Origin: Escherichia coli
Lineage (GTDB): Bacteria > Pseudomonadota > Gammaproteobacteria > Enterobacterales > Enterobacteriaceae
Length of the DNA stretch: 64,000 nt
Reading direction: 5' to 3' (one strand)
Assembly: GCF_003018115.1 (NCBI RefSeq)
Contig: NZ_CP027457.1
Shown here: positions 378 to 44,205 of the stretch, piece by piece
Layout: each line of letters begins with the position of its first letter
Numbering within the stretch: position 1 is the first letter of the stretch
Notes under the pieces: model-generated
What the model saw: the letters and a program-made list of their open reading frames with translations, nothing else
Database searches by the model: none
Told to the model about the DNA's origin: nothing
Made by a program: the position numbers and the translations under genes

Positions 378-1051
378 ATGCGTACCACATCATTTGCGAA
401 AGTTGCAGCTTTATGCGGCTTGTTGGCTCTGTCTGGTTGTGCCTCTAAAATCACCCAGCCAGATAAATATTCTGGTTTTTTAAACAATTACTCTGATTTA
501 AAAGAAACAACCTCGGCTACAGGTAAACCGGTTTTACGTTGGGTAGACCCGAGTTTTGATCAAAGCAAATATGACAGCATCGTCTGGAACCCAATCACTT
601 ATTATCCGGTACCGAAACCTTCGACCCAGGTAGGGCAGAAAGTTCTGGATAAAATTTTGAACTATACCAACACCGAAATGAAAGAAGCGATAGCGCAGCG
701 TAAACCACTGGTTACCACCGCTGGGCCGCGTAGTCTGATTTTCCGTGGGGCCATTACCGGTGTAGATACCAGCAAAGAAGGGCTGCAATTCTATGAAGTG
801 GTTCCTGTTGCATTAGTGGTTGCGGGGACGCAAATGAAATGGCTACAGGCCACCGTACCATGGATACTCGCCTCTATTTTGAAGGTGAGCTGATTGATGC
901 AGCGACTAATAAACCGGTTATCAAAGTCGTTCGTCAGGGCGAAGGTAAAGACCTGAATAACGAAAGTACGCCAATGGCTTTCGAAAATATTAAACAAGTT
1001 ATTGATGACATGGCGACCGATGCCACCATGTTTGACGTTAACAAAAAGTAG
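378..1051 (+). pseudogene. ydcL: Lipoprotein YdcL, frameshifted (two overlapping ORFs 378..893 and 839..1051 in different frames)
   Basis: N-terminal signal peptide plus lipobox (LALSGC); both ORFs read as one protein family, joined near ...GTQMK / MATGHRTMD; the shift falls in an A-run (caaatgaaatgg) around 830-840. Confidence 0.6.
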
Positions 1052-4006: not shown

Positions 4007-4097
4007 AGTCACCTCGTGCGTTATAGCGTACAGGCACCGTAGCATTTGTCCGTTATAACGCACAAGTGATAAACTTCCGTTTTGCCGGAGGAGTCGC

Positions 4098-4634
4098 ATG
4101 GAAAATCTCGCTCGCTTTTTATCCACCACACTTAAACAACTACGTCAGCAGCGCGGCTGGAGTCTTTCGCGACTGGCAGAAGCGACGGGCGTTTCTAAAG
4201 CAATGTTAGGACAGATTGAGCGTAATGAGTCCAGCCCGACGGTCGCGACATTATGGAAAATTGCCACTGGGTTGAACGTGCCCTTTTCGACATTTATTTC
4301 TCCGCCACAGTCCGCTACGCCTTCAGTTTATGATCCACAACAGCAGGCGATGGTGATCACTTCGCTGTTTCCTTATGATCCACAACTCTGCTTTGAACAC
4401 TTCTCGATTCAGATGGCACCCGGTGCAATAAGCGAATCGACGCCCCATGAGAAGGGGGTAATCGAACATGTCGTCGTCATTGATGGACAACTTGATCTGT
4501 GCGTTGATGGTGAATGGCAGAGCCTTAATTGTGGGGAAGGCGCTCGATTTGCTGCAGACGTCACGCATATCTATCGTAATGGTGGGGAGCAAATCGTACA
4601 TTTTCATTCCCTCATCCATTACCCGCGCAGTTAA
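4098..4634 (+). CDS. ydcN: HTH (XRE-type)/cupin-domain transcriptional regulator YdcN
   Basis: 178-aa ORF; N-terminal HTH (LSRLAEATGVSKAMLGQIERNESSP); divergent from ydcO. Confidence 0.8.
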   Translation: MENLARFLSTTLKQLRQQRGWSLSRLAEATGVSKAMLGQIERNESSPTVATLWKIATGLNVPFSTFISPPQSATPSVYDPQQQAMVITSLFPYDPQLCFEHFSIQMAPGAISESTPHEKGVIEHVVVIDGQLDLCVDGEWQSLNCGEGARFAADVTHIYRNGGEQIVHFHSLIHYPRS

Positions 4635-4706
4635 GCGGGAAAACTATTTCGCAACGTCGCGCTTGTGGCTAAAATAGCCGCCATTTTTCAGCTACTGGAT
4701 AAGAAT

Positions 4707-25078: not shown

Positions 25079-25897
25079 AAGGATAAATGGCGTTCTCTGT
25101 ATTTATTCGCAATTATCTGTAGGACAAATATGGAGAGCTTGATGAGTCAGAGCTAAAACAGCAATTGATTAATAAACATGTTGATTTATTCAAGAAAATG
25201 GATGTATTTTAAATGTTGATTCTTAATATAACCTAATCAATAGATTATCAAGTGAGAGCTACACATTATTGGAGGGGCAGGGGAAAACACCATTTTGGGA
25301 ACAATGCATCAGGTACTCTTACCACTGAAGCAAGATCATCCGGCACCAGGTGGTGGTGCAGTGCTTTGGAAATGGTCCCCTCGGGGGAGTTGTCATTATT
25401 TTCTATGCTATTTGCTTATTATATTCATCAGGTGAATTTAATAAATTCCTAATTTGAAATATCCACTATTAAGCTAGTGTTTAACGACGTTAAGATGGCA
25501 ATGTGCAGATCATGTTATCAGGGTGGGGCGGTAGCGTATATTCCTTATACAAACCATCATTCATTTCAATGATTGTTATTGAATTATTTATTGTTGTGAA
25601 TAAAAAGACATTATGAATATTGGTTTGACTTTGCATATCAGGTTTTTTATTACTCGCTGTAATGTACGAGCCTGTCGTGAATAACGTCGAGAACCCATCC
25701 GTTGCGTTTGTGATTATTTTGTTGACTAAACAGACACCCGTTTCTCTGAAGTAAAATCCCAGACTAAATCATCACATAACCATGACATTTTTCTGATATT
25801 CCCCGGTAACGCCAGATGTCGACTCGCTTATCTCATCCGCCCGACATGTTGTACATGCAATATGTGCGGATTATTATTCATTTTCACGGAGGTTGCT

Positions 25898-28006
25898 ATG
25901 TCAACCGGATTACGTTTCACACTGGAAGTGGACGGCCTGCCACCGGACGCTTTTGCGGTGGTTTCCTTTCATCTCACCCAGTCACTCTCTTCACTCTTTT
26001 CCCTCGATCTCTCCCTGGTCAGCCAGCAGTTTCTCTCCCTTGAATTTGCGCAGGTGCTGGACAAAATGGCCTACCTGACAATATGGCAGGGTGATGATGT
26101 ACAGCGCCGGGTGAAAGGTGTGGTGACCTGGTTTGAACTGGGGGAGAACGACAAAAACCAGATGCTGTACAGCATGAAGGTGCACCCGCCGCTGTGGCGT
26201 GCCGGTCTGCGCCAGAACTTCCGTATCTTCCAGAACGAGGACATCAAAAGCATCCTCGGCACGATATTGCAGGAAAACGGGGTGACCGAGTGGAGTCCGC
26301 TGTTCAGTGAACCGCATCCTTCCCGTGAGTTTTGTGTCCAGTACGGTGAGACTGATTACGATTTCCTGTGCCGGATGGCGGCGGAGGAAGGCATCTTCTT
26401 TTATGAGGAGCATGCTTACAAAAGTACCGACCAGAGCCTGGTGCTGTGCGACACGGTCCGCCATCTGCCCGAATCTTTTGAAATCCCCTGGAACCCGAAC
26501 CCCCGTACCGAGGTGAGCACCCTCTGCATCAGCCAGTTTCGCTACAGCGCACAAATCCGCCCTTCTTCCGTGGTGACCAAAGACTACACCTTTAAACGCC
26601 CCGGCTGGGCAGGACGTTTTGATCAGGAAGGCCAGCACCAGGATTACCAGCGCACGCAGTATGAGGTGTATGACTACCCCGGACGTTTCAAGGGCGCCCA
26701 CGGGCAGAACTTTGCCCGCTGGCAGATGGAGGGCTGGCGAAACAATGCAGAAACCGCGCGGGGAATGAGTCGCTCGCCGGAGATATGGCCGGGACGGCGA
26801 ATTGTGCTGACGGGGCATCCGCAGGCGAACCTGAACCGGGAATGGCAGGTGGTGGCGAGCGATCTTCACGGCGAACAGCCGCAGGCGGTACCGGGACGCA
26901 GGGGTTCAGGCACCACGCTGGATAACCATTTTGCGGTAATACCGGCAGACCGGACATGGCGACCACAGCCGTTGCTGAAACCGCTGGTGGATGGCCCGCA
27001 GAGCGCCGTCGTGACGGGACCGGCAGGCGAGGAAATCTTCTGCGACGAACATGGTCGCGTGCGGGTGAAATTTAACTGGGACCGCTATAACCCGTCAAAC
27101 CAGGACAGTTCATGCTGGATCCGTGTGGCACAGGCGTGGGCAGGCACCGGCTTTGGCAACCTGGCGATACCGCGTGTGGGTCAGGAGGTGATTGTGGACT
27201 TCCTCAACGGCGATCCGGACCAGCCGATTATTATGGGGCGTACCTACCACCAGGAAAACCGCACACCCGGCAGCCTGCCGGGGACGAAGACGCAGATGAC
27301 CATTCGTTCGAAAACCTATAAGGGCAGCGGGTTTAATGAACTGAAGTTTGACGATGCGACAGGGAAAGAACAGGTCTACATCCACGCGCAGAAGAACATG
27401 AACACCGAGGTGCTGAATAACCGCACCACGGATGTGATAAACAACCATGCTGAGACCATTGGCAACAATCAGATGATTGCGGTTACCAACAATCAGATAC
27501 AGACGGTGGGCGTTAACCAGATAGAGACGGTGGGCAGTAACCAGATCATTAACGTGGGTTCTGTTCAGGTGGAAACGATTGGACTTGTTCGTGCGCTGAC
27601 CGTGGGCGTGGCGTACCAGACGACGGTAGGTGGCATTATGAACACTTCGGTGGCTCTGATGCAGTCCTCGCAGATCGGTTTGCATAAATCGTTGAGGGTC
27701 GGGCTGGGTTATGACGTCAAAGTCGGAAATAACGTTACCTTCACCGTTGGTAAAACGAAAAAGGATGATACCGGGCAGACCGCGATTTACTCCGCCGGTG
27801 AGCATCTGGAGCTCTGCTGTGGTAAGGCAAAGCTGGTGCTGACAAAGGACGGTCAAATTTTTCTCAACGGCACAAAAATTCATTTGCAGGGTAAGGAGCA
27901 GGTTAATGGTGACTCACTGTTGATTAACTGGAACTGTGCAGCCTCGAAATCCCCACCGAAGACCCCTGATGAAAAGCAGGATACGCCGGATATGAGAGAG
28001 TACTGA
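25898..28006 (+). CDS. vgrG: Type VI secretion spike protein VgrG (Rhs-element vgr gene)
   Basis: Start at ATG 25898 (MSTGLRFTLEVDG...) after GGAGG; gp27/gp5-like regions and C-terminal Val-Gly repeats (IQTVGVNQIETVGSNQIINVGSVQVETIG). Confidence 0.85.
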   Translation: MSTGLRFTLEVDGLPPDAFAVVSFHLTQSLSSLFSLDLSLVSQQFLSLEFAQVLDKMAYLTIWQGDDVQRRVKGVVTWFELGENDKNQMLYSMKVHPPLWRAGLRQNFRIFQNEDIKSILGTILQENGVTEWSPLFSEPHPSREFCVQYGETDYDFLCRMAAEEGIFFYEEHAYKSTDQSLVLCDTVRHLPESFEIPWNPNPRTEVSTLCISQFRYSAQIRPSSVVTKDYTFKRPGWAGRFDQEGQHQDYQRTQYEVYDYPGRFKGAHGQNFARWQMEGWRNNAETARGMSRSPEIWPGRRIVLTGHPQANLNREWQVVASDLHGEQPQAVPGRRGSGTTLDNHFAVIPADRTWRPQPLLKPLVDGPQSAVVTGPAGEEIFCDEHGRVRVKFNWDRYNPSNQDSSCWIRVAQAWAGTGFGNLAIPRVGQEVIVDFLNGDPDQPIIMGRTYHQENRTPGSLPGTKTQMTIRSKTYKGSGFNELKFDDATGKEQVYIHAQKNMNTEVLNNRTTDVINNHAETIGNNQMIAVTNNQIQTVGVNQIETVGSNQIINVGSVQVETIGLVRALTVGVAYQTTVGGIMNTSVALMQSSQIGLHKSLRVGLGYDVKVGNNVTFTVGKTKKDDTGQTAIYSAGEHLELCCGKAKLVLTKDGQIFLNGTKIHLQGKEQVNGDSLLINWNCAASKSPPKTPDEKQDTPDMREY

Positions 28007-28073: not shown

Positions 28074-31000
28074 ATGAGCGGAAAACCAGCGGCGCGTCAG
28101 GGAGATATGACTCAGTATGGCGGTCCCATTGTCCAGGGTTCGGCAGGTGTAAGAATTGGCGCGCCAACTGGCGTGGCGTGCTCGGTGTGTCCGGGCGGGA
28201 TGACCTCGGGCAACCCGGTGAACCCGCTGCTCGGTGCAAAAGTACAGCCCGGCGAGACGGACCTTGCGCTGCCCGGCCCGCTGCCGTTCATTCTCTCCCG
28301 CACCTACAGCAGCTACCGGACCCGGACGCCTGCACCGGTGGGCGTTTTCGGCCCCGGCTGGAAAGCGCCTTCTGATATCCGCTTACAGCTACGTGATGAC
28401 GGACTGATACTCAACGACAACGGCGGGCGGAGCATTCACTTTGAGCCGCTGCTGCCAGGGGAGGCGGTGTACAGCCGCAGCGAGTCCCTGTGGCTGGTGC
28501 GCGGTGGTAAGGCAGCACAGCCGGACGGCCATACGCTGGCACGGCTGTGGGCGTCGCTGCCGCCGGATATCCGGTTAAGCCCGCATCTTTACCTGGCGAC
28601 CAACAGCGCACAGGGGCCGTGGTGGATACTGGGGTGGTCTGAGCGGGTGCCGGGTGCTGAGGACGTACTGCCAGCGCCGCTGCCGCCGTACCGGGTGCTT
28701 ACCGGGATGGCGGACCGCTTCGGGCGGACGCTGACGTACCGGCGTGACGGACGGTGCCGGGCGTGAGTTCCGTCTGGTGCTGACCACACAGGCGCAGCGG
28801 GCGGAAGAGGCCCGGCAGCAGGCGGTCGTCGCCGGAGCAAAACGACCGGACATTCCTGATTCACTGCCGGAGAGCACAGAGTACGGCCCCGACAGGGGTA
28901 TCCGTCTTTCAGCGGTGTGGCTGATGCACGACCCGGCATACCCGGAGAATCTGCCCGGTGCGCCACTGGCGCGGTACACGTATACGGAAGCCGGTGAACT
29001 GCTGGCGGTATATGACCGCAGCAATACGCAGGTGCGTGCTTTCACGTATGACCCGCAGCACCCGGGCCGGATGGTGGCGCACCGTTACGCGGGAAGGCCG
29101 GAGATGCGCTACCGCTACGACGATACGGGGCGGGTGGTGGAGCAACTGAACCCGGCAGGGTTAAGCTACCGCTATCTTTATGAGCAGGACCGCATCACCG
29201 TCACCGACAGCCTGAACCGGCGTGAGGTGCTGCATACAGAAGGCGGGGCCGGGCTGAAGCGGGTGGTGAAAAAAGAACTGGCGGACGGCAGCGTCACGCG
29301 CAGCGGGTATGACCCGGTGGGGCGGCTTACGGCGCAGACGGACGCGGCGGGACGGCGGACAGAGTACGGTCTGAATGTGGTGTCAGTCGACATCACGGAT
29401 ATCACCACGCCGGACGGGCGGGAGACGAAATTTTACTATAACGACGGGAACCAGTTAACGGCAGTGGTGTACCCGGACGGGCTGGAGAGCAGCCGGGCAT
29501 ATGATGAGCTGGACAGGCTGGTAACGGAGACATCGCGCAGCGGGGAGACAGTACGCTACCGCTATGATGATGCGCACAGTGAATTACCGGCCACAACAAC
29601 AGATGCGACGGGCAGCACCCGGCAGATGACGTGGAGCCGCTACGGTCAGTTGCTGGCGTTCACCGACTGCTCGGGCTACCAGACCCGCTATGAATACGAC
29701 CGCTTCGGCCAGATGACGGCGGTCCACCGCGAGGAAGGCATCAGCCTTTACCGCCGCTATGACAACCGTGGCCGGTTAATCTCGGTGAAAGACGCACAGG
29801 GCCATGAAACGCGGTATGAATACAACGCCGCAGGCGACCTGACTGCCCTCATTACCCCGGACGGCAACCGGAGCGAGACACAGTACGATGCGTGGGGAAA
29901 GGCGGTCAGCACCACGCAGGGCGGGCTGACGCGCAGTATGGAATACGACCTTGCCGGACGCATCACCACGCTGACCAACGAGAACGGCAGCCGGAGTGAG
30001 TTTACCTACGATGCGCTTGACCGGCTGGTACAGCAGCGCGGCTTTGACGGGCGGACGCAACGTTACCACTATGACCTGACCGGAAAACTCACGCAGAGTG
30101 AAGATGAGGGGCTTGTCACCCTCTGGCACTACGACGAATCGGACCGCCTCACTCACCGCACGGTGAACGGCGAACCGGCAGAGCAGTGGCAGTATGATGG
30201 CCACGGCTGGCTGACAGAAATCAGCCACCTGAGCGAAGGCCATCAGGTGGCGGTGCATTACGGTTATGATGATAAGGGCCGCCTGGCCGGGGAGCGCCAG
30301 ACGGTGCATAACCCGGAGACGGGGGAACTGCTGTGGCAGCATGAGACAGAGCACGCATACAACGAACAGGGGCTGGCAAACCGCGTCACGCCGGACGGCC
30401 TGCCGCGGGTGGAGTGGCTGACCTACGGCAGCGGTTATCTTGCGGGGATGAAGCTGGGCGGGACACCTCTGGTCGAGTATACGCGGGACCGCCTGCACCG
30501 GGAAACTGCGCGCAGCTTTGGTAACGGAACGGGCAGTACAGCCGCATATGAACTGACCAGCACTTACACCCCCGCAGGCCGGTTACAGAGCCAGCACCTG
30601 AACAGCCTGATGTATGACCGTGACTACGTGTGGAATGACAACGGCGACCTGGTGCGCATCAGCGGCCCGCGACAGACGCGGGAATACGGCTACAGCGCCA
30701 CGGGCAGGCTGGAGAGCGTGCGCACCCTCGCACCGGACCTGGACATCCGCATCCCGTATGCCACCGACCCGGCGGGAAACCGGCTGCCGGACCCGGAGCT
30801 ACACCCGGACAGCACGCTCACGGCGTGGCCGGATAACCGCATCGCGGAGGATGCGCACTATGTTTACCACTATGATGAATACGGCAGGCTGACGGAGAAG
30901 ACGGACCGCATCCCGGCGGGTGTGATACGGACGGACGACGAGCGGACCCACCACTACCACTACGACAGCCAGCACCGTCTGGTGTTCTACACGCGGATAC

Positions 31001-32250
31001 AGCATGGCGAGCCGCAGGTGGAGAGCCGCTACCTCTGTGACCCGCTGGGACGGCGAATGGCGAAACGGGTATGGCGGCGGGAGCGTGACCTGACAGGATG
31101 GATGTCGCTGTCGCGTAAACCGGAGGTGACGTGGTATGGCTGGGACGGAGACAGGCTGACGACGGTACAGACAGACCAGACCCGTATCCAGACGGTCTAC
31201 CAGCCGGGGAGCTTCACGCCGCTCATCCGTATCGAGACAGAGAACGGCGAACGGGAGAAAATGCAGCGCCGCAGCCTAGCGGAGAAGTTACAGTCGGAAG
31301 GGAGTGAGGACGGTCACGGTGTGGTGTTCCCGGCTGAGCTGGTGAGGATGCTGGACAGGCTGGAGGAAGAAATCCGGGCAGGCCGCGTGAGCAGTGAAAG
31401 CCGGGCGTGGCTTGCGCAGTGCGGGCTGACGGTGGAGCAACTGGCCAGACAGGTGGAGCCGGAATACACACCGGCGCGAAAAGTTCATCTTTATCACTGC
31501 GACCACCGGGGCCTGCCGCTGGCGCTCATCAGCGAAGACGGCAATACGGCGTGGCGCGGGGAGTATGATGAATGGGGCAACCAGCTTAATGAGGAGAACC
31601 CGCATCATGTGTATCAGCCATACCGCCTGCCGGGGCAGCAGTATGATGAGGAGTCGGGGCTGTACTATAACCGCAACCGGTACTATGATCCGTTGCAGGG
31701 GAGGTATATTACCCAGGATCCGATTGGGCCAGTGGGGGGGTGGAATCCCTATAGTTATGTGCTTAATAATCCAGCCCAGTTTATTGACCCAACAGGTTTA
31801 ACTCAAGAGGACAATTGGACCTATGGTGAGGTAGGTAATAGCTGTGTTACGAGTCAACGCGATTTTACTCCCCCGCCCGGACTTGCGGATATGAAAGCCA
31901 GCATTGGCGCTGCCTGCTCAAGAAACAATGCTTCCAGAAACTGCCACCCCGTAGATGGTAGTAATGCTTCTGCACCATCGGATAAAGCCGCATGGGAAAA
32001 TATTCAAAATGCGACAAATGGTAAAGATTTATCTGGTGGTGGAAATATGTTTTGTGTAGGAAATGAGGACTGTGCGGTTGTTCATAGCTGTCGTGAAATA
32101 GTTAATGCTCGACACCCGGCAGGACGAGTGCGTGAACGTGTAACTCCGTTAACAACGTCAGGAACAGCAACGCTCAATGGAACAACAGTTTACTTTTATA
32201 ATGATCCCCGGAATGGTAATTGTCCTGCTCACGAATATATTCCTCAATAA
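28074..32250 (+). pseudogene. rhsE: PAAR-Rhs polymorphic toxin, copy 1, split by a frameshift near 28740-28766 (ORFs 28074..28766 and 28744..32250)
   Basis: N-terminal PAAR-like region, YD-repeat core, DPxGL boundary. Relative to copy 2 about 38 nt (encoding ...[12 protein letters not shown]...) is missing, shifting the frame. Symbol by K-12 position only. Confidence 0.7.
31801..32250 (+). other. Rhs copy 1 C-terminal variable toxin domain (CT1), function unknown
   Basis: About 149 aa following DPTGL at 31786..31800; drop in GC content; Cys-rich; no motif recognised. Confidence 0.6.
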
Positions 32251-32300
32251 AGAAAGGTGGCCAGACTAAGCTCTAGCCACATTTTTTGGAGATCCTTTTC

Positions 32301-32924
32301 ATGAAAAGGTTTTTTATAACATGTTGCGTTATGACATTATTTTTATTTGTTAAATGTAAAGCAGCGTGTGTAACTTCCTTATATGAGGTTCAGCAATCGC
32401 TCTTTACATACATTTATTTGATTAGACAAGACCCTGTTCATTTTGATTCATATATTAAGAATGTGCATAACGAATTAAAAATATTCCATGATATTGATAA
32501 AGCCATGAATATAGCCTCAGATATGGTCAAAATTATTGATATAAAGACCCGTTTATCATTTAATAATGATTTATATATATTACAAGGGGAGCGACAGTAT
32601 GCAATAGTTAAGAGTGAAGGGGAAAGTAGTCAATTAAAATCATCAGCATTTATCATATCTAATTACCCACCATTTAAAAACAAAGTTCTGTTAATTTTAT
32701 CCGCTACTAGTCCCGTTCAGTTGGTTATATTGTCTTTTGATCAATGTCTTAATGTGGAGGTGTTATTTGATTCAATGTCTCCAGTTTTCGCTAAGTATAG
32801 AGAAGATATTAGTGCAACATTACCATTATGGAAGGTTATTTTGACAAAAAATGATATAGAATTATATGAGTACCATAGAACAAATCCATACTCACTTAAC
32901 AAATTATTGAGCATGTCAAAATAA
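32301..32924 (+). CDS. Putative immunity protein for Rhs CT1 (signal peptide/lipoprotein-like)
   Basis: AT-rich ORF directly downstream of rhs; start at ATG 32301 (MKRFFITCCVMTLFLF...) after GGAG; hydrophobic N-terminus with Cys. Confidence 0.6.
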   Translation: MKRFFITCCVMTLFLFVKCKAACVTSLYEVQQSLFTYIYLIRQDPVHFDSYIKNVHNELKIFHDIDKAMNIASDMVKIIDIKTRLSFNNDLYILQGERQYAIVKSEGESSQLKSSAFIISNYPPFKNKVLLILSATSPVQLVILSFDQCLNVEVLFDSMSPVFAKYREDISATLPLWKVILTKNDIELYEYHRTNPYSLNKLLSMSK

Positions 32925-33121: not shown

Positions 33122-34410
33122 AGGGAAAGATCATCAGAAGTTCACTTTTTGTACTAAATAATTTGCATTTTATATTTAAAAATTGAGATATTCCTCATTA
33201 CCTGAAGCTGTTTTTTATTGCTTATACATGATCAAATACTCCTTACATAATTAAGGAGAACAAAATGGAACTTAAAAAATTGATGGAACATATTTCTATT
33301 ATCCCTGATTACAGACAAGCCTGGAAAGTGGAACATAAATTATCGGATATTCTACTGTTGACTATTTGTGCCGTTATTTCTGGTGCAGAAAGCTGGGAAG
33401 ATATAGAGGATTTTGGTGAAACACATCTCGATTTTTTGAAGCAATATGGTGATTTTGAAAATGGTATTCCTGTTCACGATACCATTGCCAGAGTTGTATC
33501 CTGTATCAGTCCTGCAAAATTTCACGAGTGCTTTATTAACTGGATGCGTGACTGCCATTCTTCAGATGATAAAGACGTCATTGCAATTGATGGAAAAACG
33601 CTCCGGCACTCTTATGACAAGAGTCGCCGCAGGGGAGCGATTCATGTCATTAGTGCGTTCTCAACAATGCACAGTCTGGTCATCGGACAGATCAGGACGG
33701 ATGAGAAATCTAATGAGATTACAGCTATCCCAGAACTTCTTAACATGCTGGATATTAAAGGAAAAATCATCACAACTGATGCGATGGGTTGCCAGAAAGA
33801 TATTGCAGAGAAGATACAAAAACAGGGAGGTGATTATTTATTCGCGGTAAAAGGAAACCAGGGGCGGCTAAATAAAGCCTTTGAGGAAAAATTTCCGCTG
33901 AAAGAATTAAATAATCCAGAGAATGACAGTTACGCAATTAGTGAAAAGAGTCACGGCAGAGAAGAAATCCGTCTTCATATTGTTTGCGATGTCCCTGATG
34001 AACTTATTGATTTCACGTTTGAATGGAAAGGGCTAAAGAAATTATGCGTGGCAGTCTCCTTTCGGTCCATAATAGCAGAACAAAAGAAAGAGCCAGAAAT
34101 GACGGTCAGATATTATATCAGTTCTGTTGATTTAACCGCAGAGAAGTTCGCCACAGCAATCCGAAACCACTGGCACGTGGAGAATAAGCTGCACTGGCGT
34201 CTGGACGTGGTAATGAATGAAGACGACTGCAAAATAAGAAGAGGAAATGCAGCAGAATTATTTTCAGGGATACGGCACATCGCTATTAATATTTTGACTA
34301 ATGATAAGGTATTCAAGGCAGGGTTAAGACGTAAGATGCGAAAAGCAGCCATGGACAGAAACTATCTGGCGTCAGTCCTTGCGGGGAGCGGGCTTTCGTA
34401 ATCTTGCCCT
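33122..34410 (+). mobile_element. H-repeat (H-rpt, ISAs1-family) element, copy 1
   Basis: About 1.29 kb unit bounded by imperfect inverted repeats AGGGAAAGAT ... ATCTTGCCCT; three near-identical copies in the window. Confidence 0.8.
33265..34401 (+). CDS. ISAs1-family transposase (H repeat-associated protein), copy 1
   Basis: 378-aa [31 protein letters not shown]...; DDE-type transposase family. Confidence 0.85.
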
Positions 34411-35114
34411 GGGGCAACCTGCTTAATGAGGAGAACCCACATCACCTGTATCAGCCATACCGCCTGCCGGGGCAGCAGCATGATGAGGAGTCAGGGCTTT
34501 ATTATAACCGTCACCGGTACTATGACCCGCTACAGGGGAGGTATATCACCCAGGATCCAATCGGGCTAAGAGGTGAATGGAATCTGTATAAATATCCATT
34601 AAACCCTGTTCGGTTTATAGATTCTTTGGGTTTAAAATTCCATGTTAACGGTGATCCAAGTGATTTTAATCAGGCTGTTGAGTATTTAAAACAAGATTCA
34701 CGAATGAAAGAAGCTATAGATTTTTTATCAAGCTCTGAAGAAACCATAAAGATAGAGTATATTGATGAAACCGACGTTAGATTTGACCTGGATAAAATGA
34801 CTATATATTGGAATAGTAAGGCGGCTTTATTTTGTTCAACTGATTTAAAATCGAAATCACAATCACCTGCATTAGGTTTGGGGCATGAGTTTGCTCATGC
34901 GCACTTATATCTTATTGATAAGGATGGTTATATGGGGCTTGTGAGACGTGCGGATGAACAATATAAAAATAAAGAAGAGGCGAGAGTTATCACTTTAATT
35001 GAACAGCATGCGGCGAAAACTTTAGGTGAGTGTACCAGAACAGCATATAATGGAGTGTATTATCGTGTGAATACACCAACGCAGACGGCAACAATAAATG
35101 GCACGCCAGAATAG
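34404..35114 (+). CDS. Orphan Rhs C-terminal fragment with HExxH (zincin-like metallopeptidase) toxin domain (orphan CT-a)
   Basis: Begins at the H-rpt right end with the rhs core 3' end ([18 protein letters not shown]...DPIGL...[13 protein letters not shown]), then a divergent domain containing [10 protein letters not shown]; probably lacks its own start codon. Confidence 0.65.
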
Positions 35115-35575
35115 TGAGATTTTTCATGATGAAATATTTGATGGCTTTATTGTCTCTATTTTCTGCTTCGGTATTGGGGATGGGGCGAGTGAATGATTTA
35201 TGTGGAATAGATAGTGTGAAAACGATAGAAATAATTAATCTTCCAGCATATGTTACCACCTTAACCCCGCTTAGCAAGGAAGGTCTCAAGAGAATATACA
35301 AACATAAAGTGGTGGTGAATGGGGTTAGCGATTTTTATGCTGGTGAGATAATTGATCTATTGCAAATGAAGTATTTCAGGAAGGAGGAGGATAACGATAT
35401 AAGATGGGGGGTTAACATTGTTTCGAATAAAAATAATAAATGTGAAATTTATTTTGATGGTTTTGGTGAATGTGGAAGCGTGAATGGCATTAATGTATGT
35501 TTTGAAAAAAATGAAATGATATATTGGATTAAAAAAGAAATCCCTTTTCTGTCGCAAGAAATAGATGGGCTTTAA
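35114..35575 (+). CDS. Putative secreted immunity protein for orphan CT-a
   Basis: ORF overlapping the toxin stop; likely start at ATG about 35126 (MMKYLMALLSLFSASVLG..., signal peptide); AT-rich. Confidence 0.6.
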   Translation: MRFFMMKYLMALLSLFSASVLGMGRVNDLCGIDSVKTIEIINLPAYVTTLTPLSKEGLKRIYKHKVVVNGVSDFYAGEIIDLLQMKYFRKEEDNDIRWGVNIVSNKNNKCEIYFDGFGECGSVNGINVCFEKNEMIYWIKKEIPFLSQEIDGL

Positions 35576-35651: not shown

Positions 35652-38600
35652 ATGAGCGGAAAACCGGCGGCGCGGCAGGGCGACATGACCCGCAAGGGAC
35701 TGGATATTGTGCAGGGTTCAGCGGGTGTGCTGATAGGTGCGCCGACGGGAGTGGCCTGTTCGGTGTGTCCGGGAGGGATTACCTATGCTAACCCGGTGAA
35801 CCCGGTGCTGGGTGCGAAGGTGCTGCCGGGCGAGACGGACCTTGCGCTGCCCTGCCCGCTGCCGTTTATTCTTTTCCGCGCCTACAGCAGCTACCGGACC
35901 AGAACACCCGCGCCGGTGGGGGTGTTTGGTCCCGGCTGGAAAGCGCCCTTCGATATCCGCTTACAGATACGCGATGAAGGCCTGATACTCAACGACAGCG
36001 GCGGCAGGAGCATTCACTTTGAGCCGCTGTTTCCCGGCGAGATAAGCTACAGCCGCAGCGAGTCACTCTGGCTGGCGCGGGGCGGAGTAGCGGCGCAGCA
36101 CAGTTCGCAGCCGCTAAGCGCGCTCTGGCAGGTGCTGCCGGAAGATGTTCGCCTGAGTCCGCATGTGTACCTGGCGACAAACAGCCTTCAGGGGCCGTGG
36201 TGGATACTCAGCTGGCCGGAGCGGGTGCCGGGGGCGGACGAGGTGCTGCCGCCGGAGCCGCCCGCATACCGGGTGCTGACGGGCGTGGTGGACGGCTTCG
36301 GGCGGACGCTGGCCTTTCACCGGGCAGCGGAGGGTGACGTGGCGGGCGCGGTGACGGGGGTGACGGACGGCGCGGGCCGCCGTTTTCACCTGGTGCTGAC
36401 CACACAGGCGCAGCGGGCGGAAGAGGCCCGTAAACCGCACACCGCTTCGTTATCTTCCCCTGACAGTCCCCGCCCTCTCTCAGCTCCTTCCTTCCCCGAC
36501 ACGCTGCCCGCCGGTACAGAGTACGGTGCCGATAACGGTATCCGGCTGGAGGCGGTATGGCTGACACACGACCCGGCATACCCGGATGAACAGCCGACTG
36601 CGCCGCTGGCGCGCTACACGTACACGGCCGGTGGTGAACTGCGGGCGGTGTATGACCGCAGCGGGACGCAGGTGCGCGGGTTTACTTATGATGCGGAGCA
36701 CGCCGGGCGGATGGTGGCGCACCATTATGCGGGTAGGCCGGAGAGCCGCTACCGGTATGATGATACCGGTCGGGTGACGGAGCAGGTCAACCCGGAGGGG
36801 CTGGACTACCGCTTTGAGTACGGAGAGAGCCGGGTAATCATCACGGACAGCCTGAACCGGCGGGAGGTGCTGTACACGGAAGGCGAGGGTGGCCTGAAGC
36901 GGGTGGTGAAGAAGGAGCATGCCGACGGGAGCATCACCCGCAGCGAGTATGATGAGGCGGGGAGGCTGAAGGCGCAGACGGATGCGGCGGGGCGGCGGAC
37001 GGAGTACCGGCTGCATATGGCGTCTGGAAAGCTGACTTCAGTGGTACTGCCGGACGGCAGGACGGTACGGTATGGTTACAACAACCAGTTGCAACTGACG
37101 TCAGTGACATATCCGGATGGTTTACGCAGCAGCCGGAAATATGACCGTCAGGGCAGGCTGGCGGAAGAGACCTCGCGCAACGGTAACATTACGCGCTGGT
37201 TTTATGATTCTTCCCGCAGTGGCCTGCCCTGTGCGGTGGAAGACGGAACCGGGGTGAGGCGGAGAATAACGCGAAACCGGTACGGTCAGCTTCAGGCGTT
37301 TACGGACTGCTCGGGGTACACGACGCGGTATGAGTATGACCGGTACGGTCAACAAATCGCCGTTCACCGGGAAGAAGGCATCAGCACTTACAGCAGTTAT
37401 AACCCGCGCGGTCAACTGGTCAGTCAGAGGGATGCGCAGGGGCGTGAAACCCGTTATGAGTACAGCGCCGCAGGAGACCTGACAGCAACGGTATCACCGG
37501 ACGGTAAACGCAGCACCATCGCATATGATAAACGCGGGCGTCCGGTGAGTGTGACGGAAGGCGGTCTGACGCGCAGCATGGGGTATGACGCTGCCGGGCG
37601 CATCACCGTGCTGACCAACGAGAACGGCAGCCAGTCCACGTTCCGGTATGACCCGGTTGACAGGCTGACTGAACAGCGCGGTTTTGACGGCCGGACGCAA
37701 CGTTACCACTATGACCTGACCGGAAAACTCACACAGAGTGAAGACGAGGGGCTTATCACCCTCTGGCACTACGATGCGTCGGACCGCATCACGCACCGGA
37801 CGGTGAACGGCGACCCGGCAGAGCAGTGGCAGTATGATGAGCACGGGTGGTTAACCACCCTCAGCCATACCAGTGAAGGCCACCGCGTGTCGGTCCACTA
37901 CGGCTATGACGATAAAGGCCGCCTGACCAGTGAGCGCCAGACGGTGGAGAACCCGGAGACGGAGGAACTGCTGTGGCAGCATGAGACAGAGCACGCATAC
38001 AACGAGCAGGGGCTGGCAAACCGCGTCACGCCGGACAGCCTGCCGCCGGTGGAGTGGCTGACGTATGGCAGCGGCTATCTGGCGGGCATGAAGCTGGGCG
38101 GGACGCCGCTGCTGGAGTTCACGCGCGACCGCCTGCACCGTGAGACGGTGCGCAGCTTCGGCAGCAGGGCAGGCAGTAATGCCGCATATGAACTGACCAG
38201 CACATACACCCCCGCAGGCCAGTTACAGAGTCAGCACCTGAACAGCCTGGTATATGACCGTGACTACGGGTGGAATGACAACGGCGACCTGGTGCGCATC
38301 AGCGGCCCGCGACAGACGCGGGAATACGGCTACAGTGCCACGGGCAGGCTGGAGAGCGTGCGCACCCTCGCACCGGACCTGGACATCCGCATCCCGTATG
38401 CCACGGACCCGGCGGGCAACCGGCTGCCGGACCCGGAGCTGCACCCGGACAGTACCCTCACAGTGTGGCCGGATAACCGCATCGCGAAGGATGCGCACTA
38501 TGTTTACCACTACGATGAATACGGCAGACTGACGGAGAAGACGGACCGCATCCCGGCGGGTGTGATACGGACGGACGACGAGCGGACCCATCACTACCAT

Positions 38601-39845
38601 TACGACAGCCTGCACCGCCTGGTCCATTACATCCGTATCCAATATGAGGAGCCACTGGTGGAGAGCCGCTACCTCTATGATCCGCTGGGCCGCCGGACGG
38701 GTAAACGGGTGTGGCGGCGGGAGCGTGACCTGACGGGGTGGATGTCGCTGTCGCGTAAACCGGAGATGACATGGTACGGCTGGGACGGAGACCGCCTGAC
38801 GACGGTACAGACAGACACCACGCGAATCCAGACGGTCTACCTGCCGGGGAGCTTCACGCCGCTCATCCGCATCGAAACGGAGAACGGCGAACGGGAGAAA
38901 GCGCAGCGTCGCAGTCTGGCGGAGAAGTTACAGTCGGAAGGGAGTGAGGACGGTCACGGTGTGGTGTTCCCGCCTGAACTGGTGATGATGCTGGACAGGC
39001 TGGAGGGAGAGATACGGGCAGACCGCGTGAGCCGTGAAAGTCGCCAGTGGCTGGCGCAGTGCGGACTGACGGTGGAGCAACTGGCCAGACAGGTGGAGCC
39101 GGAATACACACCGGCGCGAAAAGTTCATCTCTATCACTGCGACCACCGTGGCCTGCCGCTGGCGCTCATCAGCGAAGACGGCAATATAGCGTGGAACGCG
39201 GAGTATGATGAGTGGGGCAACATGCTGAACGAGGAGAACCCGCATCACCTGTATCAGCCATACCGCCTTCCGGGTCAGCAGTACGATGAGGAGTCGGGGC
39301 TGTACTATAACCGGAACCGGTACTATGATCCGTTGCAGGGGAGGTATATCACCCAGGACCCGATAGGGCTGATGGGGGGATGGAACCCTTACCTTTATCC
39401 GTTAAATCCTGTCACAAATACTGACCCTCAGGGGTTAGAAGCGATTCTTCCTGGTCCGTTCCCCTTCCCAATTCCATTGCCAAAAAGTCCTGTACAGCAG
39501 GAAGCAGATGCAAATGCAGCAAAAACATTGACAAAATGGTGGAAAAACTTTGGAGATGCCATTAATAATCCGCCACCTCCTGGTAATTGTTCTAATGATT
39601 ATTATGAACATCTGAAAAATCAAAAAGAAGCTATTTGCAACCAAAAAAGAAAGTGTTACCCAACCGATAGTTGTGAAACTATACTTCAGAAAGGTGTGTA
39701 TGGTCTTGCTTGTGTATCAGCAAGGAATAATATTATGAATCAATGTTTTAATGGAGGTGATTTACGGCATCAGCTTGAAAGAGAAACGGTCAGGGGAACT
39801 ATGATGTCATGTACTACATTGGCTGTAATAAAAGGATGTTTATAA
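35652..39845 (+). CDS. Intact PAAR-Rhs polymorphic toxin, copy 2 (1397 aa)
   Basis: AAGGA Shine-Dalgarno; N-terminal PAAR-like region (CSVCPGG), YD repeats, conserved ...PxxxxDPxGL boundary (DPQGL at 39423..39437), variable C-terminus. Confidence 0.9.
39438..39845 (+). other. Rhs copy 2 C-terminal toxin domain (CT2), Cys-rich, function unknown
   Basis: About 135 aa after DPQGL; Pro-rich linker then Cys-rich segment (CSNDYYEHL...[14 protein letters not shown]...CVSARNN...C); AT-rich. Confidence 0.6.
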
Positions 39846-40370
39846 ATGGGAAAAGACGAGATCATAGATTATATTCAGAAAACGTTTTCTGAATATCCAG
39901 ATTATTTGAAAAATGGGGTCGTTGATGAAGACAACATTGCATATTGCCATGACGCTATAAACCTTTTTTCTGGAAAGAGTTGGATTGAATTAATGGCCAG
40001 TGATCTTTACCATTCTGAAGATGCTGTCATGTGTCTCACTAAACCAGCATTCTCATATTATATTGCAGCCTATTTAAAACTTTTTATTGAAAATTATTAC
40101 GAAGCTGATGCTTTAGTGGATACTATTTTAAATATGCTCACTCCTCCTGTTAGGAATGGTATCCCCAGCACTACATGGATAGCAAAAAATCTTGATTGCT
40201 TTAGTCGTAATAAAAGGGTGGCTATTTCTTTTACATTCCAATATTTATGTAATGAATATAATGATCCAAATACTGAAAAGGCGTTAAATATATATTGGGG
40301 ACAGTATCTGAATGAATCATTGCTTATTAAAAATGTACAGAACTCTAAAAATAAATGTAAATCACAGTAA
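39846..40370 (+). CDS. Putative cytoplasmic immunity protein for Rhs CT2
   Basis: 174-aa ORF whose ATG overlaps the rhs stop (TAAATG); no signal peptide; AT-rich. Confidence 0.65.
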   Translation: MGKDEIIDYIQKTFSEYPDYLKNGVVDEDNIAYCHDAINLFSGKSWIELMASDLYHSEDAVMCLTKPAFSYYIAAYLKLFIENYYEADALVDTILNMLTPPVRNGIPSTTWIAKNLDCFSRNKRVAISFTFQYLCNEYNDPNTEKALNIYWGQYLNESLLIKNVQNSKNKCKSQ

Positions 40371-40374
40371 GACA

Positions 40375-40575
40375 GAATCAAGCAGAAATCGTGGGCGTGG
40401 TTCGCACCCTGACGGAGGGTGTAGCGTGTACTAGATCACAGTGAGCGACATCAAAGCTTGGTCACGTTCTGGCATTACGATGAAGCCGACCGCCTGACGC
40501 ACCGTACCGTGAATGATGAAGATGCCGAGTGCTGGCAGTACAACGAACGGGGCTAGCTGACGGAAAAAGACGAGC
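40375..40575 (+). repeat. Degenerate vgrG-like and rhs-core-like sequence relics
   Basis: 40380..40440 translates to ...EIVGVVRTLTEGVA... (VgrG VG-repeat-like); 40455..40570 translates to [32 protein letters not shown]-stop (Rhs core-like, compare 30115..30230). Confidence 0.55.
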
Positions 40576-40582
40576 AGCGCAT

Positions 40583-41870
40583 AGGGAAAGATCATCAGAA
40601 GTTCACTTTTTGTACTAAATAATTCGCATTTTATGTTTAAAAATTGAGATATTCCTCATTACCTGAAGCTGTTTTTATTGCTTATACATGATCAAATACT
40701 CCTTACATAATTAAGGAGAACAAAATGGAACTTAAAAAACTGATGAAACATATTTCTATTATCCCCGATTACAGACAAGCCAGGAAAGTAGAACATAAAT
40801 TGTCAGATATTCTACTGTTGACTATTTGTGCCGTTATTTCTGGTGCAGAAGGCTGGGAAGATATAGAGGATTTTGGGGAAACACATCTCGATTTTTTGAA
40901 GCAATATGGTGATTTTGAAAATGGCATTCCTGTTCACGATACCATTGCCAGAGTTGTATCCTGTATCAGTCCTGCAAAATTTCACGAGTGCTTTATTAAC
41001 TGGATGCGTGACTGCCATTCTTCAGATGATAAAGACTTCATTGCAATTGATGGAAAAACGCTCCGGCACTCTTATGACAAGAGTCGCCGCAGGGGAGCGA
41101 TTCATGTCATTAGTGCGTTCTCAACAATGCACAGTCTGGTCATCGGACAGATCAAGACGGATGAGAAATCTAATGAGATTACAGCTATCCCAGAACTTCT
41201 TAACATGCTGGATATTAAAGGAAAAATCATCACAACTGATGTGATGGGTTGCCAGAAAGATATTGCAGAGAAGATACAAAAACAGGGAGGTGATTATTTA
41301 TTCGCGGTAAAAGGAAACCAGGGGCGGCTAAATAAAGCCTTTGAGGAAAAATTTCCGCTGAAAGAATTAAATAATCCAGAGCATGACAGTTACGCAATCA
41401 GTGAAAAGAGTCACAGCAGAGAAGAAATCCGTCTTCATATTGTTTGCGATGTCCCTGATGAACTTATTGATTTCACGTTTGAATGGAAAGAGCTGAAGAA
41501 ATTATGCGTGGCAGTCTCCTTTCGGTCAATAATAGCAGAACAAAAGAAAGAGCCAGAAATGACGGTCAGATATTATATCAGTTCTGCTGATTTAACCGCA
41601 GGGAAGTTCGCCACAGCAATCCGAAGCCACTGGCACGTGGAGAATAAGCTGCACTGGCGTCTGGACGTGGTAATGAATGAAGACGACTGCAAAATAAGAA
41701 GAGGAAATGCAGCAGAATTATTTTCAGGGATACGGCACATTGCTATTAATATTTTGACGAATGATAAGGTATTCAAGGCAGGGTTAAGACGTAAGATGCG
41801 AAAAGCAGCCATGGACAGAAACTATCTGGCGTCAGTCCTTGTGGGGAGCGGGCTTTCGTAATCTTGCCCT
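40583..41870 (+). mobile_element. H-repeat (ISAs1-family) element, copy 2
   Basis: Same terminal sequences as copy 1. Confidence 0.8.
40725..41861 (+). CDS. ISAs1-family transposase (H repeat-associated protein), copy 2
   Basis: 378-aa ORF nearly identical to copy 1 with a few substitutions. Confidence 0.85.
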
Positions 41871-42486
41871 GCCAGGGCAGCAACACGATGAGGAGTCGGG
41901 GCTGTATTATAACCGTCACCGGTACTACGATCCGTTGCAGGGGTGGTATATCATCCAGGACCCGATTGGGCTGAAGGGGGGATGGAATCTGTACCAATAT
42001 CCGCTGAATCCAGTGCAACACGTTGATCCATTAGGGCTTAGTACTATGATAATAGGTAACGGCCCCGTTCCTGATAATCCTTTTGGGCATGCTGCGGCGG
42101 CAAATCGATATGGATTAATGAGTTCGGGAACTGGGGATGAGATGGGAGCCTCTGTCTCTGATTATTTTAAAAAGATGCAACCCCGCAGAGATACCTGGAT
42201 TTGGATAATAGATACAACAGATGAAGAAGAACAATGTATGATGAATAAGGCAATAGACCTTAATAAAAAACTAAAAACTATTAACCTCGGGCCTCTTCCT
42301 GTTTTAAATAATTGTTTTAGCCGAACGAACATGATTTTTGAGGCGTGCGGGTTTAACAACCCCTCTATGAATACAAATGCGCCTATAAGCCTACAAGTGC
42401 TCGGTGAGCTTTATGGATATCAAAGATATATTATGCCTAAAGGTCCTTTCACTGGATTCCCATTTGAATTTCAAGAGGTAAAGTAA
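41839..42486 (+). CDS. Orphan Rhs C-terminal fragment with unknown toxin domain (orphan CT-b)
   Basis: From the H-rpt right end: [35 protein letters not shown]...[13 protein letters not shown], then a divergent about 149-aa domain ([10 protein letters not shown]..., two Cys). Confidence 0.6.
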
Positions 42487-42885
42487 ATGGAAATGCTTGG
42501 GAAGATATTATTGATAATTATTTCCATGATAATTATATCTTGTGATTATTATAATGCTGGCATGGACTATCAAGATAATATAGCCCTCGAGCAAGTCGTA
42601 ACATGGGATTCTGATAATATATTCACACCTAATATCTTTGAACATAATGGAAGATGTTTTATGAAGAAAAATGAAACATGGATGTTATTAAATGGAGATG
42701 CAACACCAAACATTAGAACAATGAGCAATAAGAAAATAGAATGCCTGGAGAAGAGTGAAGTAGAATGGGCTAGTAGGGTTTGCGACAGTATCACAGACAA
42801 GGAAAGGGAAAATCTGAAGGCATTAATATGTAGCAAACCAGCTAAATCAGTTAATACAGGCAAAAGACCAGCGTTAGGATATTGA
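42487..42885 (+). CDS. Putative lipoprotein immunity protein for orphan CT-b
   Basis: 132-aa ORF abutting the toxin stop; N-terminal hydrophobic segment ending in a lipobox-like IISC. Confidence 0.6.
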   Translation: MEMLGKILLIIISMIIISCDYYNAGMDYQDNIALEQVVTWDSDNIFTPNIFEHNGRCFMKKNETWMLLNGDATPNIRTMSNKKIECLEKSEVEWASRVCDSITDKERENLKALICSKPAKSVNTGKRPALGY

Positions 42886-42917: not shown

Positions 42918-44205
42918 AGGGAAAGATCATCAGAAGTTCACTCTTTGTACTAAATAATTCGCATTTTATGTTTAAAAATTGAGATATTCCTCATTACCTG
43001 AAGCTGTTTTTATTGCTTATACATGATCAAATACTCCTTACATAATTAAGGAGAACAAAATGGAACTTAAAAAACTGATGGAACATATTTCTATTATCCC
43101 CGATTACAGACAAGCCTGGAAAGTAGAACATAAATTGTCAGATATTCTACTGTTGACTATTTGTGCCGTCATTTCTGGTGCAGAGGGTTGGGAAGATATA
43201 GAGGATTTTGGTGAAACACATCTCGATTTTTTGAAGCAATATGGTGATTTTGAAAATGGTATTCCTGTTCACGATACCATTGCCAGAGTTGTATCCTGTA
43301 TCAGTCCTGCAAAATTTCACGAGTGCTTTATTAACTGGATGCGTGACTGCCATTCTTCAGATGATAAAGACGTCATTGCAATTGATGGAAAAACGCTCCG
43401 GCACTCTTATGACAAGAGTCGCCGCAGGGGAGCGATTCATGTCATTAGTGCGTTCTCAACAATGCACAGTCTGGTCATCGGACAGATCAAGACGGATGAG
43501 AAATCTAATGAGATTACAGCTATCCCAGAACTTCTTAACATGCTGGATATTAAAGGAAAAATCATCACAACTGATGCGATGGGTTGCCAGAAAGATATTG
43601 CAGAGAAGATACAAAAACAGGGAGGTGATTATTTATTCGCGGTAAAAGGAAACCAGGGGCGGCTAAATAAAGCCTTTGAGGAAAAATTTCCGCTGAAAGA
43701 ATTAAATAATCCAGAGCATGACAGTTACGCAATCAGTGAAAAGAGTCACAGCAGAGAAGAAATCCGTCTTCATATTGTTTGCGATGTCCCTGATGAACTT
43801 ATTGATTTCACGTTTGAATGGAAAGGGCTGAAGAAATTATGCGTGGCAGTCTCCTTTCGGTCCATAATAGCAGAACAAAAGAAAGAGCCAAAAATGACGG
43901 TCAGATATTATATCAGTTCTGCTGATTTAACCGCAGAGAAGTTCGCCACAGCAATCCGAAACCACTGGCACGTGGAGAATAAGCTGCACTGGCGTCTGGA
44001 CGTGGTAGTGAATGAAGACGACTGCAAAATAAGAAGAGGAAATGCAGCAGAATTATTTTCAGGGATACGGCACATTGCTATTAATATTTTGACGAATGAT
44101 AAGGTATTCAAGGCAGGGTTAAGACGTAAGATGCGAAAAGCAGCCATGGACAGAAACTATCTGGCGTCAGTCCTTGCGGGGAGCGGGCTTTCGTAATCTT
44201 GCCCT
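42918..44205 (+). mobile_element. H-repeat (ISAs1-family) element, copy 3
   Basis: Same terminal sequences; right flank is the native pptA upstream region. Confidence 0.8.
43060..44196 (+). CDS. ydcC: ISAs1-family transposase (H repeat-associated protein), copy 3
   Basis: 378-aa ORF; symbol by position next to pptA as in K-12. Confidence 0.8.

Follow-up and report, generated by a model that had tools for sequence, protein, structure and literature searches.

A rare Ntox16 tip on an intact Rhs protein of Escherichia coli and its probable DUF6714-like immunity gene

A stretch of 64,000 nt from Escherichia coli contig NZ_CP027457.1 (assembly GCF_003018115.1), referred to here as the window, was found to contain an rhs locus with a single intact Rhs gene, named Rhs2. 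The subject of this report is the C-terminal tip of Rhs2 together with the gene that directly follows it, a stretch of 933 bp. In the initial annotation of this DNA the tip was described as a Pro-rich linker followed by a compact Cys-rich domain which was not recognized, and the following gene as a coupled immunity gene.

The Rhs2 module and its C-terminal tip

The module consists of the following features.

35652..39437, plus strand: N-terminal region and YD-repeat shell of Rhs2 through the PxxxxDPxGL boundary, residues 1-1262 (RHS_core, YD_repeat_2x, Rhs_assc_core, DUF6531)
39438..39491, plus strand: Pro-rich linker of 18 aa directly after DPQGL, read from the sequence
39492..39569, plus strand: pre-toxin helix of 26 aa, subfamily-specific and outside the Pfam Ntox16 model (AlphaFold2 (AF2) helix at residues 2-22 of the 117-aa query, predicted local distance difference test (pLDDT) score ~80)
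39570..39842, plus strand: Ntox16 toxin domain of 91 aa with 8 Cys, predicted three-helix bundle (Pfam PF15523, conservation table, AF2)
39832..39848, plus strand: coupling junction TTA TAA ATG, with AAGGA at 39832-39836 (Shine-Dalgarno-like, 9 nt upstream of the ATG), the stop codon at 39843-39845 and the ATG at 39846-39848 (from the sequence)
39846..40370, plus strand: predicted cognate immunity gene of 174 aa, DUF6714-like, all-alpha, acidic, with neither signal peptide nor transmembrane (TM) segment (Pfam, AF2, hydropathy, isoelectric point (pI), adjacency to Ntox16)
40458..40553, plus strand: Rhs-core remnant of 32 codons and then a stop, bounding the cassette downstream (its translation aligns to Rhs2 residues ~710-745; the RefSeq equivalent is a partial pseudogene)

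Rhs2 is encoded by an open reading frame (ORF) at 35652..39845 on the plus strand and is 1397 aa in length. Residues 1-1262 match the NCBIfam equivalog model NF041261 (RHS_core) over model positions 1-1261 at 2604.9 bits (cut-off 2000), and further matches were obtained with YD_repeat_2x (TIGR01643, six matched stretches), with Rhs_assc_core (TIGR03696, residues 1185-1262) and with Pfam DUF6531 (residues 47-123). Rhs2 is a complete RHS core protein, the core ending in the PxxxxDPxGL motif. It is also, as first annotated, the only intact full-length Rhs in the window, Rhs1 being frameshifted and the other Rhs pieces being short fragments behind copies of the insertion sequence ISEc1.

The codon that follows the DPQGL end of the core begins at base 39438, and the tail from this point comprises 135 aa. 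The G+C content is approximately 0.60-0.65 in the core, falls to approximately 0.35 at the core/tip boundary (~39400) and stays low through the immunity gene. A sharp fall at this boundary typically marks a tip cassette that has been swapped in, and the 135-aa tail is therefore regarded as a foreign, AT-rich cassette of this kind. The core remnant at 40458..40553 means that the cassette is bracketed by core sequence, and this remnant may be the scar of a recombination that installed or displaced cassettes.

The order of linker and compact domain given in the initial annotation was found to be correct, with the 26-aa helix lying between the two. The helix contains a KWWKNF motif common to Rhs2 and a homologue from Chitiniphilus (P0004). 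In a 237-aa Rhs-tip fragment (P0005) the same Pro-rich linker and helix are present (78% identity to Rhs2 there), followed by an unrelated C-terminal domain. As the same linker and helix are joined to a different toxin, the segment behaves as a separable unit; the comparison suggests a reusable pre-toxin module and a recombination point right after KWW. Across the Ntox16 family the linkers between DPxGL and the domain vary, being Pro-rich in many members and TM-like or rich in Gly/Ala in 12 of 43. The linker and helix segment could possibly serve in the exit or entry of the tip.

Identification of the tip as an Ntox16 domain

The domain that had been left unrecognized corresponds to Pfam PF15523 (Ntox16), which matches the Rhs2 tip over model positions 2-83 of 85 (E=2.2e-12, 47.5 bits). 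Close homologues of the tip bear a precomputed PF15523 label. Ntox16 was defined computationally as a polymorphic-toxin family, alpha-helical and with a conserved R and [DNE]xxH, by Zhang, de Souza, Anantharaman, Iyer and Aravind (2012; PMC3482391). These authors reported it from Cyanobacteria, beta-, gamma- and delta-Proteobacteria and Verrucomicrobia, tied it to delivery by type II (T2SS) and type VI (T6SS) secretion systems and Photorhabdus virulence cassettes (PVC), to RHS repeats and to the PVC metallopeptidase, and gave its immunity family as "-" in their table.

When 1.84 billion representative proteins were searched exhaustively with HMMER, 292 relatives of the toxin domain were obtained at E<=1e-3; among the best 150 of these, 116 have the domain at the C-terminus. 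The family is spread over Proteobacteria, Cyanobacteria, Bacteroidota, Verrucomicrobia and myxobacteria. Six of the proteins (P0036, P0063, P0088, P0122, P0155, and P0165) have two Ntox16 stretches per polypeptide, and P0088 and P0165 have Cys-rich N-terminal regions behind a signal peptide.

Conservation was calculated from an alignment of 144 Ntox16 domains, with residues numbered by the 117-aa query starting VQQEAD. R78 is found in 100% of the sequences, H93 in 99% and D90 in 88%, the remaining 12% having Asn at this position; the Rhs2 tip carries this family signature as R78 and D90-L-R-H93. Other conserved positions are P-P-G-x-C33, L41, A77, and the run C85-F86-x-G88-G89-D/N90-x-x-H93. 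Six Cys residues (C33, C49, C55, C74, C85, and C107) are conserved at 97-100%. The two remaining Cys behave as a pair: of the 97 sequences with C61, 91 also have a tail Cys among the last residues, as against only three of the 47 that lack C61. Pairwise gain and loss of this kind makes disulfide cross-links probable, and the family probably has three conserved disulfides and a facultative fourth, although it is possible that some of the Cys are metal ligands.

The AF2 model of the 117-aa toxin, made with the alignment, is all-helical with a mean pLDDT of 92.6 (~98 over the core). Helices lie at residues 35-49, 61-86, and 91-113, in addition to the subfamily-specific N-terminal helix, and the Ntox16 domain is thus modelled as a three-helix bundle of approximately 85 aa. 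The conserved G-G-D-x-x-H is placed at the turn into the last helix, with R78 on the helix before it. A Foldseek search of AFDB50 with this model returned only Ntox16-annotated proteins, from E. coli, Shigella, Salmonella, Corallococcus, acetic-acid bacteria, cyanobacteria, Flavobacterium, Elizabethkingia, and Akkermansia. The best match was a 100% identical E. coli TA447 entry named "RhsD", which, like other UniProt/AFDB relatives, is already automatically annotated as "Novel toxin 16 domain-containing protein".

Searches of PDB chains with the toxin and immunity sequences, by single sequence and by profile, gave nothing meaningful, and the AF2 models of both proteins showed no likeness to characterized folds beyond generic helical bundles. 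The HEPN RNase, secreted phospholipase A2 and saposin-like folds were considered for Ntox16 and set aside, the similarity to solved members not being found. There were no significant matches in PADLOC or PHROGs, and NCBIfam has no model for the tip or the immunity protein. The profile and structure searches of the region after DPQGL that had been proposed in the initial annotation thus gave a named family but no characterized toxin family, and for the family named, no activity is reported in the searched literature. Experimental work on Ntox16 was not found there, the only mentions of the family being its computational definition in PMC3482391 and an incidental entry in a gene list.

The immunity gene and its pairing with Ntox16

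The translational coupling of toxin and immunity gene through TAAATG was confirmed, the stop codon directly abutting the ATG. Tight or overlapping toxin-immunity junctions were also found at five other loci (L003, L005, L006, L015, and L016). The immunity protein was correctly described as having no signal peptide: its N-terminus is hydrophilic (maximum Kyte-Doolittle mean of -0.14 in a 12-aa window), and its maximum in a 19-aa window, 1.01, indicates no TM-like stretch. Five immunity proteins were tested for hydropathy, namely that of the window and four homologues, and none has a hydrophobic N-terminus or a TM segment. The three other ORFs at immunity positions in the locus have signal-like N-termini with hydropathy values of 2.1-3.3.

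The match of the immunity protein itself to Pfam DUF6714 (PF20461) is weak (E=0.0077). Among the homologues that align with it, 14 of 14 match DUF6714 at E<=0.1 and nine of 14 at E<=1e-3, the best at 1.3e-8, so that the protein likely belongs to DUF6714 by transitivity. Some of its homologues share 67-99% identity with it, and distant ones occur in conserved gene order; a profile-based word search for further homologues yielded nothing beyond those already known. The AF2 model of the immunity protein is all-alpha (pLDDT 88.8) and resembles generic helical repeats only. The two ORFs can be taken as real genes rather than chance ones, because the toxin has its 292 homologues and the immunity gene has both homologues and a conserved gene order. 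Their products are charge-complementary by calculated pI. The immunity protein has a pI of 4.9 (4.3-6.5 among the immunity proteins), and the basic toxin core has one of 8.5, equal to the family median of 8.5.

A DUF6714-like gene adjoins Ntox16 in all eight loci (nine modules) with enough flanking sequence, on Rhs, extracellular contractile injection system (eCIS)-type and small forms. No locus with more than ~450 bp of flank is without such a gene, and four other contigs end too near the toxin to be counted. The pairings are as follows.

Window: Rhs2 and the immunity gene
L003, 1..2302, Chitiniphilus shinanonensis GCA_040365255.1: two tandem Ntox16/DUF6714 modules
L004: pair on a short metagenome contig
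L005 and L006: pairs with metagenomic Rhs proteins of 1398 and 1450 aa
L012: eCIS_core-Ntox16 protein with the DUF6714 gene upstream
L015: small stand-alone form, a 135-aa Ntox16 protein with a hydrophobic N-terminus, a clear example of a Sec-signal-like N-terminus
L016, Citrobacter freundii: vgrG, rhs(Ntox16) and an immunity gene 82% identical to that of the window, near Hcp and TssA-like genes

As this gene order is kept across distant lineages and types of carrier, DUF6714 is the likely cognate immunity family of Ntox16, gene adjacency being the one line of evidence. DUF6714 is not mentioned in any paper of the searched literature. A 60-nt degenerate DNA pattern, TGYNNNNNNGCNMGN(N18)TGYTWYNNNGGNGGNRAYNNNNNNCAY, matches five real loci, and one true pair was found with it in viral contigs. 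In the Chitiniphilus locus a frameshift breaks the first immunity gene (495..842 and 742..984), while the second toxin has lost the last conserved Cys and has no stop before the immunity domain, forming a 315-aa ORF (P0170) annotated as "DUF6714 family protein". Relative to PMC3482391, the modest additions made here are the six-Cys pattern with its facultative fourth pair, the PPGxC start, the pairing with DUF6714 and the confident three-helix model.

Layout and distribution of the locus

On the E. coli map the locus occupies the rhsE position, flanked by yncH and pptA. Its components, in order, are an intact vgrG, a frameshift-split Rhs1, ISEc1 in three copies, two orphan fragments of Rhs tips with an ORF downstream of each, and Rhs2. 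The features outside the Rhs2 module are listed below.

25862..28006, plus strand: vgrG/tssI, intact, 714 aa, the T6SS spike gene heading the rhs locus (NCBIfam TIGR03361 VI_Rhs_Vgr, E=5.4e-188, 625.7 bits against a cut-off of 186)
28074..28766 and 28744..32250: Rhs1, an N-terminal piece of 230 aa and the remaining 1168 aa, parted by a frameshift near 28750
32286..32924: ORF downstream of the Rhs1 tip, with a signal-like N-terminus
33265..34401, 40725..41861, and 43060..44196: three near-identical transposase genes of ISEc1 (ISAs1 family, "H-repeat"); that at 40725..41861, on the plus strand, lies between the Rhs2 module and the next orphan Rhs C-terminal/immunity pair (ORF list; RefSeq annotation of the identical locus)
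34404..35114 and 41839..42486: short orphan Rhs C-terminal fragments, right behind the first two ISEc1 copies
35114..35575 and 42487..42885: small ORFs after the orphan fragments, with signal- or lipoprotein-like N-termini

Rhs1 directly follows vgrG, and its tip after DPTGL differs from that of Rhs2. The ISEc1 copies, orphan fragments and small ORFs form a stack of displaced tip/immunity cassettes.

The 933-bp toxin/immunity stretch is present at 99.9-100% identity in five of 5426 complete E. coli chromosomes and is accordingly a rare tip allele in this species. The carriers are enterotoxigenic E. coli (ETEC) strains, O169:H41 among them, and RefSeq labels the stretch in these chromosomes as "RHS element core protein" followed by "hypothetical protein". 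In two complete genomes in which the stretch is 100% identical (NZ_CP024269.1 and NZ_LR882990.1), vgrG and Rhs1 are fused through a deletion of ~2.5 kb, so that decay of the locus has gone less far in the window than in either.

These signs of decay bear on whether Rhs2 is used at all. It could be a silent relic within a decaying locus, neither expressed nor delivered and at most retained in the manner of a toxin-antitoxin pair. The frameshift in Rhs1, the three ISEc1 copies with their orphan fragments, the vgrG-Rhs1 fusion in the two complete genomes and the rarity of the allele would all fit such a fate. However, the 1397 codons of Rhs2 and the immunity gene are intact behind a good ribosome-binding site, vgrG is intact in the window, and the Citrobacter orthologue stands in a canonical T6SS context, so a relic is considered unlikely.

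Two further observations concern regions unrelated to the Rhs2 module. A 402-aa ORF of the window at ~1583..2791 corresponds in size to the gene in the 3598..5320 region of L002, a near-identical genome region. In L002 an IS200/IS605 tnpA pseudogene adjoins a gene for an insQ/TnpB-family RNA-guided endonuclease, and the hicAB and ortT toxin genes lie further along.

Delivery and site of action

The preferred interpretation, which is held with good confidence, is that Rhs2 is a T6SS-associated polymorphic effector of the Rhs type, encoded at an rhsE-type locus of ETEC lineage, and that its tip acts in the cytoplasm and is blocked by the DUF6714-family immunity protein from the next gene. The linkage to the T6SS comes from the intact vgrG in the same locus and from the Citrobacter orthologue, which lies right after vgrG and near Hcp and TssA-like genes. 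For the genome studied here the link is given by the vgrG of the window alone, as any T6SS core genes would lie outside the window.

By analogy with established Rhs/T6SS biology, the YD shell would enclose the tip, and an internal aspartyl protease would cut it off after DPQGL, inside the shell. The effector would be carried by VgrG and shot into an adjacent cell, and the Pro-rich linker and helix might help the tail on its way out or in. Sister cells would be protected by the immunity protein, which is expected to bind the toxin one-to-one in their cytoplasm and block it. A cytoplasmic site of action is probable because the immunity protein is signal-less, because eCIS carriers of the domain occur, and because of the Rhs context. 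The suggestion of a cytoplasmic target made in the initial annotation is supported to this degree, the signal-like N-termini of the other immunity-position ORFs of the locus providing a contrast.

Several observations weigh against this interpretation. vgrG lies 7.6 kb upstream of Rhs2, with the frameshifted Rhs1 and an IS element between them, and Pfam calls no PAAR domain at the N-terminus of Rhs2 at E<=10, the literal P-A-A-R motif at residues 5-8 notwithstanding. A domain stapled by disulfides is unusual for a toxin of the reducing cytoplasm. Sec-signal-like N-termini were found in ~25 of 150 homologues by a crude test, which hints that some members fold outside the cytoplasm. Lastly, the conserved G-G-D-x-x-H could be largely structural, forming a tight turn and helix N-cap.

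The points on the Cys are the more difficult ones, since disulfide staples fit the Sec-exported or extracellular members of Ntox16 and do not fit the reducing cytoplasm. Three ways out are possible: the staples may only stabilize the domain in transit, some of the Cys may bind metal, or the toxin may act in the periplasm, the last being disfavoured because the immunity protein is cytoplasmic. If the third held, the tip would be a toxin of the envelope or periplasm whose bundle is oxidized by the DsbA of the target, with three to four disulfides, and the cytoplasmic DUF6714 protein would protect the producer only before export. The six near-invariant Cys and the co-occurring pair amount to a disulfide signature, and L015 is a clear case of a member with a signal-like N-terminus. 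Against this, sister cells need immunity where the toxin acts. The five DUF6714-like partners tested for hydropathy all lack a signal peptide and a TM segment, and the N-termini of the others show no sign of one, whereas the immunity-position ORFs of the other Rhs tails at the locus do have signal-like N-termini, a difference that looks meaningful. Carriers of the eCIS type, moreover, inject into the cytoplasm. An envelope toxin is for these reasons judged rather improbable.

Metal binding would be a variant of cytoplasmic action and is not exclusive of it. Here the Cys would be ligands, for example in a C33/C85/D90/H93 site at one end of the bundle and a Cys4 cluster at the other, and the toxin would be a metal-dependent cytoplasmic enzyme. 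C85, D90, and H93 lie within nine residues at the turn between helices 2 and 3, C33 falls at the same end by helix register, and such an arrangement would explain how so many Cys can go together with an immunity protein of the cytoplasm. The presence of Asn, a poorer metal ligand, at position 90 in 12% of the members does not favour it, and the pairwise gain and loss of C61 and the tail Cys fits disulfides better. Metal ligation in place of disulfides is considered unlikely. For the cytoplasm-acting effector preferred here, the Cys would be structural staples, either as disulfides formed outside the cytoplasm or as ligands of metal.

Possible activity of the Ntox16 domain

It is tentatively proposed, at less than even confidence, that Ntox16 is a small cytoplasm-acting enzyme that employs His93, Asp90, and Arg78 at the turn between helices 2 and 3, and that its substrate bears phosphate and is most probably nucleic acid. 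Nucleases are prevalent among the Rhs tips that have cytoplasmic immunity proteins. This prevalence, the invariant residues and the combination of a basic toxin with an acidic immunity protein are the grounds for the proposal.

A domain of only ~85 aa need not be an enzyme. The three-helix bundle could instead bind an essential cytoplasmic protein or complex stoichiometrically and block it; its fold matches only MIT-type protein-binding helical bundles, and no catalytic fold was recognized. Yet an invariant Arg and His with a near-invariant Asp/Asn, kept among members of only 25-35% identity, would be expected of a catalytic or ligand site rather than of a surface for protein binding, and the small number of molecules that the T6SS delivers per shot favours catalytic toxins. 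A purely binding mode of action is accordingly regarded as quite improbable. A more ambitious form of the enzymatic proposal, somewhat doubtful at present, is that Ntox16 is a new minimal enzyme of ~85 residues, stapled by Cys or metal, whose R/D/H chemistry or cytoplasmic target would be new among the toxins of bacterial warfare and to which DUF6714 is a dedicated inhibitor.

Comparison with related systems and significance

The Rhs2 tip is a member of Ntox16 by its full-length hidden Markov model (HMM) match, its all-alpha prediction, its R and [DNE]xxH residues and its C-terminal position on an Rhs protein. The links of the family to T6SS, Sec ("T2SS") and PVC/eCIS delivery described in PMC3482391 were seen again here.

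Compared with the RhsA-E type effectors of E. coli and other enterobacteria, Rhs2 has the same core, the same PxxxxDPxGL boundary and the same drop in G+C at the tip, in the same kind of vgrG-linked locus with ISEc1/H-repeat copies and arrays of orphan tips and immunity genes. It differs in the rarity of its tip allele and in having no assigned activity, unlike the nuclease and ADP-ribosyltransferase tips that are already characterized.

The T6SS DNases of the Ntox15/Tde1 type are likewise small and mostly helical, with a His/Asp motif, cytoplasmic immunity and T6SS delivery, a likeness of analogy and not of membership. Some of them reportedly bear a membrane-active N-terminal segment. No sequence or fold match was found between the two families; Ntox16 has [DN]xxH where Ntox15/Tde1 has HxxD, and Ntox16 is the one that appears to be stapled by Cys. 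The immunity families also differ, being DUF6714 for Ntox16 and SUKH for Ntox15/Tde1 (PMC3482391). With DUF6714 the immunity protein of the window shares the predicted all-alpha fold, its own HMM match being weak as noted above.

The locus leaves the general understanding of Rhs and T6SS warfare unchanged, the domain being already named in Pfam. Its value is practical: E. coli here supplies an intact copy, open to genetic work, of a toxin family that is widespread (292 representative clusters at E<=1e-3), and the family gains a likely immunity family together with defined residues to mutate, namely six to eight Cys besides R78, D90, and H93. The locus also presents the puzzle of an apparently disulfide-stapled toxin paired with a cytoplasmic immunity protein. 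Once the activity is solved, annotation would follow for "Novel toxin 16" and DUF6714 proteins by the hundred. Should Ntox16 be a new minimal enzyme, experiments on the family could conveniently begin with the intact E. coli pair.

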